Below, piece by piece: positions 13,522-51,934 of a stretch of DNA of 64,000 nucleotides. The stretch is from an uncultured SAR86 cluster bacterium. GTDB lineage: Bacteria; Pseudomonadota; Gammaproteobacteria; Magnimaribacterales; AG-339-G14. Each line of letters starts with the position of its first letter. The first letter of the stretch is position 1. The stretch covers positions 212,401 through 276,400 of the forward strand of contig CACMKG010000001.1 in the NCBI GenBank assembly GCA_902614235.1, in the 5' to 3' direction. The notes under the pieces are model-generated. The model was not told where the DNA came from, did not search any database, and saw only the letters and a program-made list of their open reading frames with translations. The translations under genes were made by a program, and so were the position numbers.

Positions 13522-14370
13522 ATGTTCCAAAAAGAACACAAACAAACTTCAATAGCAAGTAACGCAATCTTCACTACTGGCTCTATGAGAGCATCGAAAC
13601 TTCTTCCTTCTCTTATTTTTACAATCTTTATTCTAATTTTAGATATTAATTTTAGTCTTGGTAAGGAAATTAAATCTGCATTTTTAGAAAGCTTTTCTCC
13701 CATAAGTAATTTATCGCAATCTACCACTGAGTTATCAAAAGAGATCAGTCTTTTTTTTACTTCACAATATAAACTTGTTAACGATCTCGAAGAAAAGAAT
13801 AACGAAATCGAAAAATTAAATTTTGAGCTTCTTAAATTAGAACAATTATCAAAAGAAAATGAAGAGCTATTAGAGATAATGGGTTATACAAAAAAACAAA
13901 CTATTTCTAAATCAGTAATAGGAGAGATTATTGATATGTCTTATTTTCCAAAAGAATCAATTAGTATAAAAACTAATATAGCTGAGATCTCAGAAGAAAT
14001 GGTGGCTTTAAGTTTAAATGGTCTGGTTGGAATAATAGATCAAATTTTTCCAAGCTATGTCAAAGTAATTCCAATTTATGAAAAAAAGGTCAATATTCCT
14101 GGGGTAATACAGAGAACAAACCAAAATATTATTCTTGAAGGAATTGGAGAGCAAAATAAATTACTAATTAAAAATTTTAAGAAAAACTCAAATATATTAT
14201 TAGAAGATAAGGTTTTCACCTCCGGATTAGGGGGAAAATATCCTAAAGGTTTCTTAATTGGTATAGTAAATAAAATTTCCGCTTCTAAAGATGATTCTAT
14301 TCTAGAAGTAGAAGTACAATCATTGTCAAATTTTGATACTGGAACAAAAATCCTTTTTGCCAATCCATGA
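13522..14370 (+). CDS. mreC: Rod-shape protein MreC
   Basis: 282 aa. N-terminal TM, a coiled-coil segment and TSGLGGKYPKGFLIG. Lies between mreB and mreD. Confidence 0.8.
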   Translation: MFQKEHKQTSIASNAIFTTGSMRASKLLPSLIFTIFILILDINFSLGKEIKSAFLESFSPISNLSQSTTELSKEISLFFTSQYKLVNDLEEKNNEIEKLNFELLKLEQLSKENEELLEIMGYTKKQTISKSVIGEIIDMSYFPKESISIKTNIAEISEEMVALSLNGLVGIIDQIFPSYVKVIPIYEKKVNIPGVIQRTNQNIILEGIGEQNKLLIKNFKKNSNILLEDKVFTSGLGGKYPKGFLIGIVNKISASKDDSILEVEVQSLSNFDTGTKILFANP

Positions 14371-14873
14371 CAGAATACCTCGATAAAAAAAATAATTTTA
14401 TTTCTATATATTTCTTTATTGGAATAACAATATTAATTTCACTTGTAATAGAGATTTTTATATCAAATTTATTTAATTTATCTGTTTATCTTCCTATAAC
14501 TCTTATGTTTCTAATATATTGGAATATGGCACTTCCTAAAGATATAGGGTTAATTTGGGCAATGATATTTGGTTTTTGTTTAGACGTTAATCAAGAAATA
14601 TTATTGGGTTCTCATGTATTACTTTTTTTACTTATTTCTTACTTAACACAAAGATATTTTCATAGATTAAGAGCTCTTTACATGATTCAACAATCATTAT
14701 TCGTTGCTGTCGTTATTTTAATATATCAAATTATTTTAATTCTTTTTTTTAGTGAATTTAAAGGAAGTATCTTTTTGGAGTTGATTCTAATGACAGTTTT
14801 ATCTGCTTTTTTGTGGCCAGTTATTTTTGGAATCTTGCGGCAATTAAGAATTAAATTTATTCAATCAAGCTAA
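14367..14873 (+). CDS. mreD: Rod-shape protein MreD
   Basis: 168 aa polytopic membrane protein. ATGA overlap with mreC. Confidence 0.75.
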   Translation: MTEYLDKKNNFISIYFFIGITILISLVIEIFISNLFNLSVYLPITLMFLIYWNMALPKDIGLIWAMIFGFCLDVNQEILLGSHVLLFLLISYLTQRYFHRLRALYMIQQSLFVAVVILIYQIILILFFSEFKGSIFLELILMTVLSAFLWPVIFGILRQLRIKFIQSS

Positions 14874-16207
14874 GAATAAAAGTAGGTAGCTAGCCCAAGG
14901 AAAGAGAAAAATCCAATTACATCAGTTACTGTTGTTACGATTACACTTCCCGCAACTGCTGGATCCATTTTTAGACCTTTTAAGAGTATGGGAATTCCCA
15001 TTCCAGACAAAACACCCGCAACCAAATTGATAATCATTGATAAGCAAATTACCCATGCAAGCAACCAATCTTGAAACCATGAACAAGCTATCAAACTAAG
15101 AATAACTGCCCATATAAAACCATTAGATATTCCTACCATCAGTTCTCTGTTGAAAATATATAAATAATTTGCCCTTACTATTTGGCCTAGAGCTAAACCT
15201 CTAACAGTTATTGTAAGAGTTTGTGTCGCAGCTACTCCTCCCATACTAGCAATTATTGGCATTAAAACTGCTAAAAAAATAACTTGTTCTAAGGTTTCTT
15301 TAAAAATATTAATAACTGAGGCAGCTATTAAGGCAGTTAGTAGATTTGTTCCAAGCCAAAATCCTCTAGTCCTGATAGCGGTGCTCGTTTTTTCAAAAGT
15401 ATCACTGTCTATCCCTGAAATTTGCCTCAATGATTCGTCTGCTTCTGATTTTATTTCGTCTATGACATCGTCAAAGGTAATTCTACCTAATAAATTATTT
15501 TGATTATCTGTCACTGGTGCAGAAATTAAATCATTTTTCTCAAAGACTCTTATTACTTCTGATGATTCTGAATAAACATTTATAGAATTGGTCTCGTCTT
15601 CCATTAAATCCTTCACTAGCTTATCAGGAGAGTTAGTTAATATTTTAGAGATAGAAAGTATTCCTCTAAATTTATTCGTCTTACTTACAACGAAAAGACT
15701 ATCTGTTGCCTCGGGGAAATTTTTTTTTATTCTCAAGTACCTCATTACCACTTCTAAAGTATGATTAGGCCTTATTAAAATAAGGTCAGTGTTCATCAGC
15801 CCGCCAGCAGTATTTTCAGGATAATCTAAGACTTTTTTGATTAGTTGCCTATTTTGATCAGTCATAGCATCTAATACTTCAGCCGTTACTGTTTCTGGAA
15901 GATCTTGAAGAATGTCTGCTATTTCATCTGGTTCAAGATTTTTTATAACTTCAGCTACTTCGACAGGATCCATAAAAGAAAGAACCATTTCTCTTACTTC
16001 GTCAGAGAGATTACTTAAAACTTCTCCCTCAATATTTTCATCGATCAATTGCCAAATTATTGCTCTATTATTTGGGGAGCTAGACTCTATCAGGATTGCA
16101 ATATCATATGGCGGTATGTCATTAAACATCCTTTTTAAATTTTTGAATTCTCCCTTTGATAATTCTTCTTGAACAAAACTTATATTTAAATTTGACGCAT
16201 TATTCAT
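14870..16207 (-). CDS. mgtE: Magnesium transporter MgtE
   Basis: 445 aa. MgtE N-domain, tandem CBS region and a 5-TM C-terminal domain. Its start overlaps (ATGA) the stop of the rpoN-remnant ORF. Confidence 0.9.
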   Translation of the reverse strand: MNNASNLNISFVQEELSKGEFKNLKRMFNDIPPYDIAILIESSSPNNRAIIWQLIDENIEGEVLSNLSDEVREMVLSFMDPVEVAEVIKNLEPDEIADILQDLPETVTAEVLDAMTDQNRQLIKKVLDYPENTAGGLMNTDLILIRPNHTLEVVMRYLRIKKNFPEATDSLFVVSKTNKFRGILSISKILTNSPDKLVKDLMEDETNSINVYSESSEVIRVFEKNDLISAPVTDNQNNLLGRITFDDVIDEIKSEADESLRQISGIDSDTFEKTSTAIRTRGFWLGTNLLTALIAASVINIFKETLEQVIFLAVLMPIIASMGGVAATQTLTITVRGLALGQIVRANYLYIFNRELMVGISNGFIWAVILSLIACSWFQDWLLAWVICLSMIINLVAGVLSGMGIPILLKGLKMDPAVAGSVIVTTVTDVIGFFSFLGLATYFYS

Positions 16208-16440
16208 TTTCTATTTATAGAAGAAGGTATATTTAGTTCCTCTCTGTACTTTGCTATGGTTTTTCTGGAAACTTTAGTATTAAATTCTGAATTAAATATA
16301 TTAGAAAGTTCTTCGTCTGATTTTTTTTTAATTCCTTCTTTTTTGATCTCATCTTTAAGAAATTCGTAAATTTTAGTTCTAAGACTTTTTTTAATCTGCA
16401 ATTGATTGGTATAAAAATTCTTTTTTTTCATTAACTTCAT
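16204..16440 (-). CDS. Sigma-54 (RpoN) C-terminal RpoN-box domain only; either a gene remnant or a stand-alone mini-protein
   Basis: 78 aa. SDEELSNIFNSEFNTKVSRKTIAKYREELNIPSSINRK aligns with the E. coli sigma-54 C-terminus [37 protein letters not shown] (from memory). Sits in the canonical rpoN slot after lptB. ATGA overlaps on both sides. Confidence 0.6.
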   Translation of the reverse strand: MKLMKKKNFYTNQLQIKKSLRTKIYEFLKDEIKKEGIKKKSDEELSNIFNSEFNTKVSRKTIAKYREELNIPSSINRK

Positions 16441-17144
16441 TCACCTAAATAAGTCTTTTTAACTATTTCATTATTGGAAACTTCATCAGGAGTTCCTTTT
16501 GAGATTATTGAGCCTTCGCTAATAATAAAAATTTCGCTGCAGATATCCATTGTTGCTTTAACATTATGATCACTAATTAAAATACCTAATCCTTTACTAG
16601 AGAGTTTTTTTATTAAGTTTTTTAATTCGAGAATTGCTATTGGGTCAATTCCTGCGAATGGCTCATCGAGCATTATAAATTTAGGATTTAAAGCAATTGA
16701 TCTCGCAATTTCTACTCTTCTTCTCTGCCCCCCAGACAATTCGCCTCCTTTTTGTGATGTGATAGAACCAATGTCAAAGTCTTCAATAATTTCTTCTGTC
16801 CTTGAACTTAGCTCTCTTTGATCTAATTTTTGCGCCTCAAAAGCAGACTTGATATTATCTAAAACAGTTAAATTTCTGAAAATAGAAGGCTCCTGAGGTA
16901 AATAAACAATTCCTAGATTTGCTCTTTCTCTAATTGTTTTATTCGTAATAACTTTTTGATTAAAAATAATTTCCCCTTCAGAAGGCTGAAGAAGTCCTGC
17001 CAATATATAAAAAAATGTAGTTTTTCCTGCTCCATTCGGCCCAAGCAAACCACTAATGCTGTTGATGCTTATCTCTGTATCGATAAATTGCAAAATTGTT
17101 TTTTTGCCATAATGCTTAGAGATCTTTTTTGTTTTTAAAATCAT
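16437..17144 (-). CDS. lptB: LPS export ABC transporter ATPase LptB
   Basis: 235 aa. Walker A GPNGAGKTT, signature LSGGQRRR, Walker B IMLDEP. Confidence 0.93.
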   Translation of the reverse strand: MILKTKKISKHYGKKTILQFIDTEISINSISGLLGPNGAGKTTFFYILAGLLQPSEGEIIFNQKVITNKTIRERANLGIVYLPQEPSIFRNLTVLDNIKSAFEAQKLDQRELSSRTEEIIEDFDIGSITSQKGGELSGGQRRRVEIARSIALNPKFIMLDEPFAGIDPIAILELKNLIKKLSSKGLGILISDHNVKATMDICSEIFIISEGSIISKGTPDEVSNNEIVKKTYLGE

Positions 17145-17691
17145 TAATTTTATTAATACTTATTTTATCACTTTTCATGATTGACTTTTCTTTGGTGTTT
17201 ATTTCAATATTTTGTCCTTTGTATTCTTTTTCATCAAAAATAAGCATTAAATTCTTACTAAAAGAAATTCTATTTTCTAGAAAATAAAAATTCATTTCAT
17301 CAGCTTCGCCGGTGAATGGTTGATTTAGATACATTCCTTTAAAAATAATTTTGCTCGGTATAAATAATTCTTCAGTACCATAATTTAATTCTGAACTCTC
17401 AGAAATAATCTCAACCTCAATTTCAGAATTTTTTATATTAATAATTGGATTAAAAATATCTAAAATTTTAGAATTAGATAATCCATTAATCATTTTACTT
17501 TTTAAAGTTACGTCAATGTCAGACTCAAAAAAATTGAGTTTGAGATTTATATCTTTAGCTTGAAATATGTTTAAATTTTGATTCTTTTTTGATTGATCAG
17601 TTTCAGAATCAATATAGTAAGAAGTTAGGAAAAATGTAAGTGCGATCAACGCCAATAGCAAGACAATATAAACTGAGATTTGTTTGTACAT
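17116..17691 (-). CDS. lptC: LptC-like membrane-anchored LPS transport protein
   Basis: 191 aa. Single N-terminal TM anchor followed by a beta-rich periplasmic domain. Lies between kdsD and lptB and overlaps lptB by 29 nt. Assigned mainly by position and architecture. Confidence 0.55.
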   Translation of the reverse strand: MYKQISVYIVLLLALIALTFFLTSYYIDSETDQSKKNQNLNIFQAKDINLKLNFFESDIDVTLKSKMINGLSNSKILDIFNPIINIKNSEIEVEIISESSELNYGTEELFIPSKIIFKGMYLNQPFTGEADEMNFYFLENRISFSKNLMLIFDEKEYKGQNIEINTKEKSIMKSDKISINKINDFKNKKDL

Positions 17692-18668
17692 TAAATGATC
17701 TTCGCTTCAATAATATCGTGCATTCTGATGATTCCTTCTACTCTACCTTTTTCGTCTTTAACAACAAGAGAATAAATTTTATATTTATTCATTTGATCAA
17801 TAGCGTTTTTAATTTGCATGTTTTTGTTAATTGCTTGAAATTTTCTTGTCATCAAAGCATTGATTTTTAAATCTTCAATATTAGAATTTTTATTCAGTAA
17901 TCTTCTAAGATCACCATCTGTAAATAATCCAATTATTTTTCTTTTACTATCTTTTACAAGTGTAAGCCCAAGACCTTTGTTTGATATTTCATAAATCACA
18001 TCTTTCATGGGTGCTGAATCGGAAATTAATGGAAGAGAATTACCAGAGATCATTAAATCTTTTACTTTAAGAAGACTTTTGCCAAGTTTTCCGCCAGGAT
18101 GATTTTTTGCAAAATCTTCTGGAGAAAATTTTCTAGCTTCGAGAATAGCTATGGCTAAGGCGTCTCCTAAAATTAACATTGCTGAGGAGCTCGTAGTAGG
18201 AGCTAAATTTAGGGGACAAGCTTCTTCCGAGATTTCTAAGTGCAAATTTAAGTTAGAGTTTTTTGCTAAGGATGATTCTTCGTTTCCCGTTATGGAAACT
18301 ATAGTTCTAACTTTTGACTTACAAGTAGGAAAAATTTGGACAATTTCTTCTGTTTCTCCAGAAAATGAAAAAATTACTAAAATATCATTTTTTTTTAGAC
18401 TACCAAGGTCACCATGACTTGCCTCTGCTGCATTCAAATAAAATGATGGTGTACCTGTACTAGAGAAAGTAGAAGAAATCTTTGCTGCTATATTGCCAGA
18501 TTTACCAATTCCCATTAAAACAATGTTACCTTTACAATTTATTATTAACTCACAAATTTCATTAAATTTATTTCGATCAATTTGATTCGGAATTTTTGCC
18601 AAAGAGCTGACTTCTTGTGCAAAAGTTTTTTTGGCTGAAGCAAAAAAATTAGGACTTTTTTTATTCAT
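17691..18668 (-). CDS. kdsD: Arabinose-5-phosphate isomerase KdsD
   Basis: 325 aa. SIS domain (GIGKSG) plus tandem CBS domains. TAATG overlap with lptC. Confidence 0.9.
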   Translation of the reverse strand: MNKKSPNFFASAKKTFAQEVSSLAKIPNQIDRNKFNEICELIINCKGNIVLMGIGKSGNIAAKISSTFSSTGTPSFYLNAAEASHGDLGSLKKNDILVIFSFSGETEEIVQIFPTCKSKVRTIVSITGNEESSLAKNSNLNLHLEISEEACPLNLAPTTSSSAMLILGDALAIAILEARKFSPEDFAKNHPGGKLGKSLLKVKDLMISGNSLPLISDSAPMKDVIYEISNKGLGLTLVKDSKRKIIGLFTDGDLRRLLNKNSNIEDLKINALMTRKFQAINKNMQIKNAIDQMNKYKIYSLVVKDEKGRVEGIIRMHDIIEAKII

Positions 18669-18721
18669 AACAGATAATTCTAACTTTTATAGTAGACTTT
18701 TTATAATAACTGATTGATTTT

Positions 18722-19315
18722 ATGCGAAAACTTCTAATATTTTTCATTTTATTTGTTTTTTCTATGGTTTCTTTTTCGGGAAATGAGGTTGAAGAATATG
18801 TTTTAAAACAACATAACAAGATCTTCAAATATATAAATGACTCAGAAAATCTTCTTAAAGAAGACAGAATCAAATTCCTAGATGGATTAGAAGATACTTT
18901 GAAAGATTTGATAATTTCTAAAGAAATCTCCAAAAGAGTTCTTGGAAAAAAAAATTACTTAATAGCGACGAAAAAGCAAAAGAATGATTTTGATTTAAAA
19001 TTTAAAAATACTCTTTTCGATACTTATTCAACAGCCTTAGTAGAAATTGATAACGCAAACATAATCATTGATTCTCATGTCCATCCTAATGAACGTTTAG
19101 ATTTAGCAATTGTCAAAATGAGTGTAAGTGTTTCTGATACAGAATTTGATTTGATTTATAAAATGAAAAAAATAGAAGGAAAATGGAGAGTCATTGGAAT
19201 GATACTAGACGGAATAGACTTGATTGCAATATTTAGAAAGCAATTTAATAAACTTCTAGCTGATTTTGATGGAAATTTTGATTTAGCAATACAAAATTGG
19301 GAATTAGATAGTTAA
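18722..19315 (+). CDS. mlaC: MlaC/Ttg2D-like periplasmic phospholipid-binding protein
   Basis: 197 aa. Signal peptide, ISKRVLGK and [22 protein letters not shown] resemble MlaC. Located upstream of murA, as in the E. coli and Pseudomonas mla-murA region. Confidence 0.68.
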
Positions 19316-19326
19316 AATTTCTTAAT

Positions 19327-20589
19327 ATGGATAAATTATTAATTGAAGGTGGCTTTCAACTTAATGGCTCCATTACAGCTTCAGGCGCAAAAAATTCAGC
19401 ACTGCCTATTTTAGCAAGTTCAATACTTCTTAAAGACAAACTAACTCTAAGCAACATCCCTCATTTGAACGACATTACTACAATGTTAGAAATTCTAAGT
19501 TCAATGGGTGCTTATATGACTTTTAACGAGAATATGGATATTGAAGTAAATACCAGCTTAATTAATAATCTGAAAGCTAGATATGAACTTGTCAAAACAA
19601 TGAGGGCTTCAATCCTTGTTCTAGGCCCTCTATTAGCAAGATTTCATGAAGCAGAAGTCGCATTGCCTGGAGGATGTGCAATAGGAAGTAGGCCCGTAAA
19701 TTTGCACTTGGATTGTATGAGAAAATTAGGTGCGAACATTGATACCAGTAATGGATATATTAAAGCATCAGCTAAGGGGGGATTAACAGGTGCAAATATA
19801 GAATTTTCTCAAGTAACAGTAACAGGAACAGAAAATGCAATTATGGCTGCCACCCTCGCAAAAGGCCAAACAAAAATTACCAATGCTGCAAAAGAACCAG
19901 AAGTTACAGATTTAATTAAGTGCCTAAATAAAATGGGAGCTAAAATTCAAGGGGAAGATACAGATAAGTTAATTATCGATGGAGTGAGAGAGCTGAAGCC
20001 TACAAATTTTTCCGTTATGCCTGACCGTATTGAAATAGCAACTTATCTCACTGCAACAACAATGACTGGAGGAGAAATAACTGTAAAAGCAGTTAATCCA
20101 AACACTATTGATAAAGTTCTTCAAAAATTAGAACTTGCTGGCGCCAAAATATCTAAAGATAAAGATTCGATAAGTTTAAAAATGAAGAAACTACCTAGTG
20201 CAGTAAATATTTCAACTGCTCCTTATCCTTCTTTTCCTACCGATATGCAAGCCCAATTTATTGCCATGAATTCAATTGCGAAAGGTCAGTCTGAAGTTAT
20301 AGAGAATGTGTTCGAAAATAGATTTATGCACGTTCAAGAGTTAATCAGGATGGGAGGGAAAATTGAGTTAAAAGGAAACTCAGCTATGATCGACGGAAAC
20401 CTTAACGGATTAACCTCCGCTCCCGTTATGGCAACTGACCTGAGAGCTTCGGCAAGTCTAGTTTTAGCTGGCCTGGTTGCTAAAGGAATAACTAAAGTAG
20501 ATAGAATTTATCACATAGATAGAGGATATGAGAGAATTGAAGAGAAGTTAAAACTTCTTGGAGCAAAGATAGATAGAATTTCGGAATAA
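19327..20589 (+). CDS. murA: UDP-N-acetylglucosamine 1-carboxyvinyltransferase
   Basis: 420 aa. Active-site Cys loop [12 protein letters not shown]. Confidence 0.96.

Positions 20590-50317: not shown

Positions 50318-51934
<1,617 letters not shown>

Follow-up and report, generated by a model that had tools for sequence, protein, structure and literature searches.

A free-standing sigma-54 RpoN domain encoded as a conserved mini-gene between lptB and mgtE in SAR86 bacteria

Introduction

Sigma-54, the product of rpoN, is commonly treated as all-or-nothing: a genome holds the gene together with its activators, or it lacks the gene. In Proteobacteria, rpoN is encoded downstream of lptB, and the genes that usually follow it are hpf, ptsN, rapZ and npr. 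Here we analyze a stretch of 64 kb from an uncultured bacterium of the SAR86 cluster (contig CACMKG010000001.1; the whole stretch is called the window in the following), in which a small open reading frame (ORF) encoding only sigma-54's C-terminal RpoN domain lies between lptB and mgtE. This ORF and its product are referred to as the mini-gene and the mini-protein. The SAR86 genome is small, streamlined and poor in regulators, so that a conserved DNA-binding protein of any kind is to be considered a potentially important regulator or nucleoid protein. The group is now classified as the order Magnimaribacterales (PMC11582366).

The closest described counterpart of the mini-protein is the isolated RpoN domain, known from Aquifex constructs of 63-76 aa. 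In the holoenzyme this domain extends outward and contacts neither the core enzyme nor the rest of sigma-54, and it is described as an independent promoter recognition module (PMC5095919). The mini-protein, at 75 aa, is the same domain at nearly equal length, with a predicted three-helix bundle and the RpoN box in helix 3. In contrast to the Aquifex constructs, it is natural and separately encoded, being neither part of a sigma factor of ~480 aa nor a laboratory product, and it differs in that the second arginine of the box is a lysine in all members of its family and that the proline before helix 2 is missing in the clade of the window. A naturally truncated RpoN has also been described in Neisseria, where an rpoN-like sequence is kept at its locus (mentioned in PMC12316311); the truncation is the opposite of the one in SAR86. 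This was the only naturally truncated rpoN found in the literature.

Results and Discussion

On the minus strand of the window, an uninterrupted ORF of 78 codons was found between lptB and mgtE (16204..16440), in agreement with an earlier note on this DNA made from the sequence alone. When the interior of the ORF was shuffled, only 4 of 20,000 shuffles of this DNA (~30% G+C) were free of stop codons, and the remaining five frames across the same stretch contain 1-11 stops each. Therefore, the open frame is not a chance feature. The product, a strongly basic protein of ~9 kDa with an isoelectric point of ~10, matches the Pfam family Sigma54_DBD (PF04552; E=1.5e-11, 44.7 bits against a gathering threshold of 22.8) at profile positions 86-159 of 160 only, and the NCBIfam model of the complete factor, TIGR02395, at positions 359-434 of 434 only (43 bits, compared with a full-length cut-off of 277.35). 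It corresponds to about residues 400-474 of E. coli sigma-54. A profile built from the family likewise matches the 63-aa RpoN domain of A. aeolicus that was solved with -24 DNA (2O8K/2O9L, E=8.6e-10), the A. aeolicus C-terminal construct 2AHQ, and residues 418-474 of E. coli sigma-54. The mini-protein is a free-standing RpoN domain of sigma-54, and the earlier proposal that only the last ~75 codons of the gene are left, RpoN box included, was borne out. The box itself, SRKTIAKYR, is encoded at 16243..16269 (minus strand). Full-length sigma-54 genes (TIGR02395) occupy the same position directly after lptB, and the mini-gene is clearly derived from rpoN.

To define the extent of the truncation, the mini-protein was aligned with the C-termini of full-length sigma-54 proteins. 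Its N-terminus coincides with the conserved LKxFF motif just after the -12-recognizing helix-turn-helix (HTH); the columns of this HTH are empty for the mini-protein, and the long helix also lies outside the Pfam match. The same alignment rules out an N-terminus derived from Region I by an in-frame deletion. No Pfam match to Region I (the activator-interacting domain, PF00309) or to the core RNA polymerase-binding domain (PF04963) was obtained for the mini-protein, no Region I sequence was found elsewhere in the window, and tblastn with seven full-length sigma-54 proteins against the window recovered only their C-terminal ~40-78 residues. The absence of Region I, the core-binding domain and the -12 region, which the earlier note had stated for the locus, thus extends to the whole window. 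Compared with full-length sigma-54, the mini-protein is without Region I, Region II, the core-binding domain, the long helix and the -12 HTH. Because these parts are missing, it is unable to bind core polymerase or to respond to enhancer-binding proteins and cannot act as a sigma factor. Public databases name it 'RNA polymerase sigma-54 factor' or 'hypothetical protein'; the former annotation would wrongly imply enhancer-dependent transcription in SAR86.

The AlphaFold model of the mini-protein is a three-helix bundle with helices at residues 17-31, 39-50 and 56-65 (75-aa numbering; predicted local distance difference test score 76-77), in which the RpoN box opens helix 3, the predicted recognition helix. 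The top Foldseek matches of this model are sigma-54 chains, aligned at their RpoN domain with a root-mean-square deviation of 1.8 Å over 52 columns and 42% identity. The mini-protein is accordingly predicted to adopt the three-helix HTH fold of the domain.

The mini-gene belongs to a large family of short proteins. Among species-representative genomes, the ORF was located in single-cell genomes that carry the label SAR86 cluster bacterium; these are part of the Ramfelt dataset but did not pass its quality filter and hence bear no family label. A first protein search returned 62 homologues, nearly all of 75-78 aa, with identities down to 69%, and an exhaustive profile search of 1.8 billion representatives added more distant short members (e.g., P0063 and P0073). 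Once these distant members had been taken into the profile, a second search, again word-indexed, gave 178 matches at E<=1e-5; the best 120 of them are all 63-86 aa long and 42-99% identical to the protein of the window, and some lie on contigs of 0.4-1.2 Mb. The surroundings of the mini-gene were inspected at about ten distinct sequences, on contigs of up to 1.23 Mb and with flanks of ~12 kb at related loci. At every locus inspected, the gene order is mlaC (opposite strand), kdsD, an LptC-like gene (185-191 aa), lptB, the mini-gene, mgtE and mreDCB (opposite strand), while the locus contains none of hpf, ptsN, rapZ and npr.

Comparison of the window with the deep clades showed how old this arrangement is. 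By tblastn, KdsD is 57-60%, LptB 61-66%, MgtE ~64% and the LptC-like protein ~30% identical between them, and the mini-protein is 42-55% identical over the part aligned by BLAST; the degree of its conservation parallels that of KdsD and LptB, and the LptC-like neighbor is far less conserved. In these diverged SAR86 lineages the mini-gene stands at the same position with a length of 74-78 aa, and it has its own start and stop at ten distinct loci. Since the same mini-gene is found in the same order in clades whose LptB and MgtE proteins are only ~61-66% identical, the truncation is not recent and therefore predates a deep split within SAR86. The suggestion that the ORF is a very recent deletion scar, one of two possibilities raised in the earlier note, is refuted by an intact gene in the same place where LptB, MgtE and KdsD are only 58-66% identical, and by the selection on it described below.

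One departure from this uniformity was seen in L013, a 58-kb long-read contig polished with pilon, in which the mini-gene has lost one codon by deletion and ends in a changed C-terminus relative to the otherwise near-identical L006, and in which mreC, mreD and hisG are shortened or split. These oddities are probably assembly errors at homopolymer indels and not biology. In L001, hisD is likewise called in two pieces. In the window, the mini-ORF itself contains a run of eight A right after the start codon (16421-16428, minus strand) and a run of nine A in a KKK linker (16323-16331, minus strand). Although homopolymers of this kind readily give rise to slippage and sequencing error, all good assemblies show an intact frame.

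Selection on the mini-gene was assessed from codon alignments. Within the clade of the window, the ratio of non-synonymous to synonymous substitution rates (dN/dS, NG86) is 0.02-0.11 for the mini-gene, compared with 0.07-0.12 for lptB, 0.08-0.14 for kdsD and 0.04-0.06 for mgtE in the same pairs, and in the deeper clades it is 0.10-0.24 for the mini-gene. The uncorrected ratio of the proportions of non-synonymous and synonymous change (pN/pS) lies between 0.05 and 0.37, with Fisher p values of 7e-6 to 2e-17. Synonymous sites have reached saturation or come close to it, and between clades dS is saturated, so that no element at the nucleotide level lies behind the conservation. In line with this, Rfam (E<=1) yielded no RNA family across 14000-19500, and no riboswitch or leader accounts for the conservation; a promoter and terminator scan of 14700-18900 gave counts at the level of shuffled sequence, with no coding-strand site inside the ORF. 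The mini-gene is a functional protein-coding gene under purifying selection. Neutral evolution and interruption by stops or frameshifts in relatives had been named beforehand as signs of a decaying pseudogene; dN/dS is far below 1, and no frameshift or stop was present in the mini-gene at any inspected locus.

The positions held by this selection are those on which DNA binding by sigma-54 depends. Among 28 diverse members, 18 positions are invariant (K15, T19, E23, F24, E32, D39, L42, F46, S55, R56, K57, T58, I59, K61, Y62, R63, L66 and R74), and the box S-R-K-T-I-x-K-Y-R is invariant throughout. D39/L42, R56/K57, T58/I59, Y62/R63 and R74 align to the E. coli pairs 439-442, 455-458, 461/462 and 473/474. 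In E. coli sigma-54, replacement of the pairs 439/440, 441/442, 455/456, 457/458, 461/462 and 473/474 by alanine or cysteine abolishes activity or DNA binding, and several of these mutants are explicitly defective in DNA binding (PMC2715252). Because the conserved residues are those needed in E. coli, we infer that the mini-protein binds DNA. The second possibility of the earlier note, a retained small protein with a predicted DNA-binding function, is thereby favored by purifying selection, by the invariant residues and by the predicted three-helix RpoN fold.

One of the invariant positions departs from sigma-54. The second arginine of the RpoN box (R456 in E. coli) is lysine in 114 of 114 members of the mini family, whereas 71 of the 72 fetched full-length sigma-54 proteins with a recognizable box have Arg-Arg. 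The lone Arg-Lys box among the latter (SRKTIGNYR) was found in P0189, a full-length sigma-54 of 502 aa from the representative library, so that in at least one lineage this substitution can coexist with a sigma factor that is complete in all other respects. R455 and R456 make base-specific hydrogen bonds, and exchanges at R456 redirect recognition at the second G of the -24 GG element: His leads to GA, Leu to GT, and any of Tyr, Met, Trp and Phe to GC (PMC12096077). Lysine is not among the seven R456 substitutions listed there as losing wild-type promoter recognition, and R456K is not mentioned in the main text of that paper. The fixed lysine hints at an altered or relaxed specificity that departs from the canonical -24 GG, which provides a concrete hypothesis of a changed DNA preference. 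In the clade of the window, the conserved proline before helix 2 has been lost as well (KKKSD instead of KPLSD).

Taken together, we favor, with reasonable confidence, the explanation that a sigma-54 gene was cut down to a selected, stand-alone gene for the RpoN domain and that its product is likely a small DNA-binding protein acting by occupancy. According to this scenario, the rpoN gene of the ancestor of a broad SAR86 clade would have lost everything upstream of LKxFF, i.e., Region I, Region II, the core-binding domain, the long helix and the -12 HTH, so that the last ~75 codons were left directly behind lptB, with mgtE in place of hpf, ptsN, rapZ and npr. The mini-protein would be made from a transcript of kdsD, the lptC-like gene, lptB, the mini-gene and mgtE, possibly with translational coupling to its neighbors. 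It would bind double-stranded DNA with the helix of the RpoN box in the major groove and would act by occupancy as a small repressor, an occluder or an architectural protein. Since the second, specificity-determining arginine is fixed as lysine, its sequence preference has probably shifted from the canonical GG.

A more specific version can be put forward tentatively, namely that SAR86 dropped enhancer-dependent transcription but kept the RpoN domain, retuned by its equivalent of R456K, as a free transcription factor that binds specific sites (perhaps what is left of earlier -24 elements) and regulates by occupancy. If true, this would be the first natural case in which the promoter recognition domain of a sigma factor has survived as an independent regulator that binds DNA, in a bacterial group that ranks among the most abundant of the surface ocean. 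The survival of a single sigma-54 domain under selection through the diversification of a major marine lineage would represent a natural experiment in domain autonomy, and the isolate Magnimaribacter mokuoloeensis HIMB1674, reported in 2024, makes experiments possible.

Several results weigh against this explanation. In the window, neither the sigma-54 promoter consensus (20 occurrences against 18 expected) nor TGGCAC (6 against 9.2 expected) is enriched. Comparison across clades of the intergenic region upstream of the operon, before kdsD, revealed AT-rich, promoter-like sequence with no GG element, and a search for enriched 7-mers in the 3.8 kb of intergenic DNA, which is too little sequence for such an analysis, yielded nothing convincing. 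For a domain of this small size, the E-values given by Foldseek fall short of significance. The pairwise dN/dS estimates, each based on just 75 codons, are noisy, and between clades saturation of dS is reached. The evidence for transcription is sparse. The stretch of the mini-ORF is present in marine metatranscriptome assemblies, where one contig (X4, 16239-16389) lies wholly within the ORF at 100% identity and contigs in X2 and X8 extend from lptB into its first 30-40 nt, which is consistent with co-transcription with lptB; these are assembled contigs without strand information that possibly include DNA, and the neighboring genes are covered equally sparsely.

With respect to individual candidate sites, the best match to the sigma-54 promoter consensus in the window is TGGCATGCAAATTGCA at 51457-51472 (plus strand), with one mismatch. 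It lies inside an ORF of 538 aa (50318-51934), and matches of this quality occur at chance level. An autoregulatory site upstream of kdsD was ruled out as a candidate, given that no GG element is conserved there across clades.

The lack of a DNA target motif in the window searches also bears on the alternative that the fold was kept for a new role unrelated to DNA, with a protein or RNA partner tied, for example, to the envelope or Mg2+ functions of the operon, and that the conservation of the box serves this role. Purifying selection shows that the protein matters and not what it binds, the linkage to lptB and mgtE is invariant, and both the invariant Arg-to-Lys change and, in the clade of the window, the lost proline are departures from the canonical DNA-reading surface. 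However, the invariant positions are those required for DNA binding by E. coli sigma-54, the protein is strongly basic, and the RpoN domain has no known protein partners even within the holoenzyme (PMC5095919). We therefore consider a role unrelated to DNA unlikely.

For the junctions of the mini-gene with its neighbors, the earlier note had proposed ATGA overlaps on both sides and translational coupling to lptB and mgtE. On the mgtE side the overlap was confirmed: the TGA of the mini-ORF (16206-16204) overlaps the ATG of mgtE (16207-16205). On the lptB side, the first ATG of the 78-aa ORF (16440-16438) does overlap the lptB TGA (16439-16437), but it is not conserved. This upstream ATG is missing in the relatives L002, L004 and L005, and most homologues start at the fourth codon of the window ORF (MKKK or MRKK). 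The lptB stop is TAA in L002 and L005, and in L004 lptB is two codons longer and ends in a TAA that overlaps the conserved ATG (TAATG). The comparison of relatives therefore places the conserved start at the ATG at 16431, which gives a coding sequence of 75 aa plus TGA (16204..16431, minus strand), 5 nt behind the lptB stop in the window. The upstream ATG, which opens the three additional codons of the longest ORF (M-K-L, 16432..16440, minus strand), is probably not the start in use.

A Shine-Dalgarno-like hexamer, AGGTGA (16441..16446, minus strand), is located 9 nt upstream of the ATG at 16431, within the Leu-Gly-Glu codons at the end of lptB. In deeper clades, the mini-gene has a TTG start overlapping the end of lptB, with GGAGA or AGGAGA upstream at the same position. 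Among the 66 ORFs of at least 120 aa in the window, which were counted in addition to the mini-gene, only 15 have a Shine-Dalgarno-like tetramer within 18 nt before the start, and translation initiation here seems largely independent of such motifs. The candidacy of AGGTGA as a dedicated translation signal was downgraded, since it lies inside conserved LptB codons in a genome that seldom uses such motifs; it may be a by-product of the C-terminal codons of LptB. At the other end, the junction with mgtE takes the form of an ATGA overlap, a gap of 2-3 nt or an 11-nt overlap, depending on the clade. Thus, the tight packing of the genes is conserved, while the exact geometry of the junctions is not. 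Translational coupling of the mini-gene with lptB and mgtE is plausible from this packing, although the lptB overlap originally cited for it rests on the non-conserved ATG.

The same packing could be taken to mean that the ORF serves operon architecture only, as an open, translated spacer that carries ribosomes from lptB to mgtE and yields an inert peptide. In all clades, the stop of one gene and the start of the next overlap or come close to touching at either junction, and mgtE has no Shine-Dalgarno-like motif of its own. Coupling would, however, require an open frame but no particular protein, whereas pN/pS is 0.05-0.37 and 18 positions are invariant among clades in which the majority of synonymous sites differ. 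A spacer could also shrink, yet the length is held at 74-78 aa, exactly one domain. In addition, the geometry of the junctions varies (ATGA, gaps of 2-3 nt, overlaps of 11 nt), and 51 of the 66 window genes are without a Shine-Dalgarno motif anyway. A mere spacer is thus very improbable.

Just as improbable is a split sigma-54, in which Region I, the core-binding domain and the -12 HTH are encoded elsewhere and the mini-protein supplies recognition of the -24 element. Such a division is conceivable in that the RpoN domain is joined to the rest of sigma-54 by a linker only; an untethered RpoN domain, however, would have no contact with core or sigma by which to bring polymerase to a promoter (PMC5095919). 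Furthermore, neither another piece of sigma-54 nor a GAFTGA motif was found within the window, the promoter consensus is not enriched there, and the locus has lost hpf, ptsN, rapZ and npr. No literature linking SAR86 with sigma-54 or rpoN was found. Sigma factors are not mentioned in the SAR86 genome paper of 2011 or in the main text of the isolate paper of 2024, and the accessible supplementary tables of the latter list RpoD and RpoH markers and contain no sigma-54 term.

Other short sequences with a sigma-54 DNA-binding domain were compared with the mini-gene. Several metagenomic ORFs (e.g., P0191, P0272 and P0283) are small and have Sigma54_DBD as their sole Pfam match, as does the mini-protein. 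In contrast to it, they do not make up a conserved family in which the length is constant but are parts of full-length genes split by a frameshift, with an ORF for the activator-interacting and core-binding domains immediately upstream; at the SAR86 locus there is no such ORF, which likewise speaks against a split factor. These short proteins were consequently rejected as evolutionary intermediates, being frameshift-split Firmicute genes instead. On the Firmicute-like contigs L017-L022, full-length sigma-54 is called as two overlapping ORFs, one with the activator-interacting and core-binding domains and one with the DNA-binding domain, and the neighbors are a LevR-type Sigma54_activat/PRD regulator or, downstream, cggR-gap-pgk-tpi. 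This split may be a real frameshift, as it recurs in several samples.

A further fragment, P0071, is encoded on the 822-bp metagenome contig L012 (26% G+C; ORF at about 75-755). The frame covers only the C-terminal ~226 residues of a sigma-54, part of the core-binding-domain-to-RpoN region, with in-frame stops upstream; an N-terminal part is missing. Outside the mini family, the SAR86 protein has its closest relative in the RpoN domain of P0071 (52% identity over 61 aa), but the latter has kept Arg-Arg. As an orphan without close relatives in the protein database, this 148-aa match was also rejected as an evolutionary intermediate.

Finally, a decaying pseudogene or recent deletion scar that is open by chance deserves next to no credence: the ORF is the remainder of a much larger gene and carries public names such as 'sigma-54 factor' or 'hypothetical protein', but it is intact at every locus examined, including clades with ~60% identity in the neighboring proteins, a frame of this length stayed open in only 4 of 20,000 shuffles, pN/pS is far below 1 with p values down to 2e-17, and the RpoN box is invariant against a background of saturated synonymous sites.

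Like the mini-gene, kdsD, the LptC-like ORF, lptB and mgtE lie on the minus strand. Directly upstream, in the same operon, is lptB, encoding the ATPase of the lipopolysaccharide export ABC transporter (17144 to 16437, i.e., 16437..17144; TIGR04406, E=3.6e-89), and directly downstream is mgtE, encoding a magnesium transporter (14870..16207; TIGR00400, E=1.1e-86). Further upstream, kdsD (17691..18668) was assigned from the SIS and CBS Pfam domains of the corresponding genes at related loci. Neither kdsC nor lptA is present at the locus, in the window or in L001-L015. The sole gene separating kdsD and lptB, in the window as in L001-L015 (185-191 aa), is the fast-evolving LptC-like ORF, whose match to LptC at the corresponding genes of related loci is weak at best; in the window it encodes 191 aa (17116..17691) and overlaps lptB by 29 nt.

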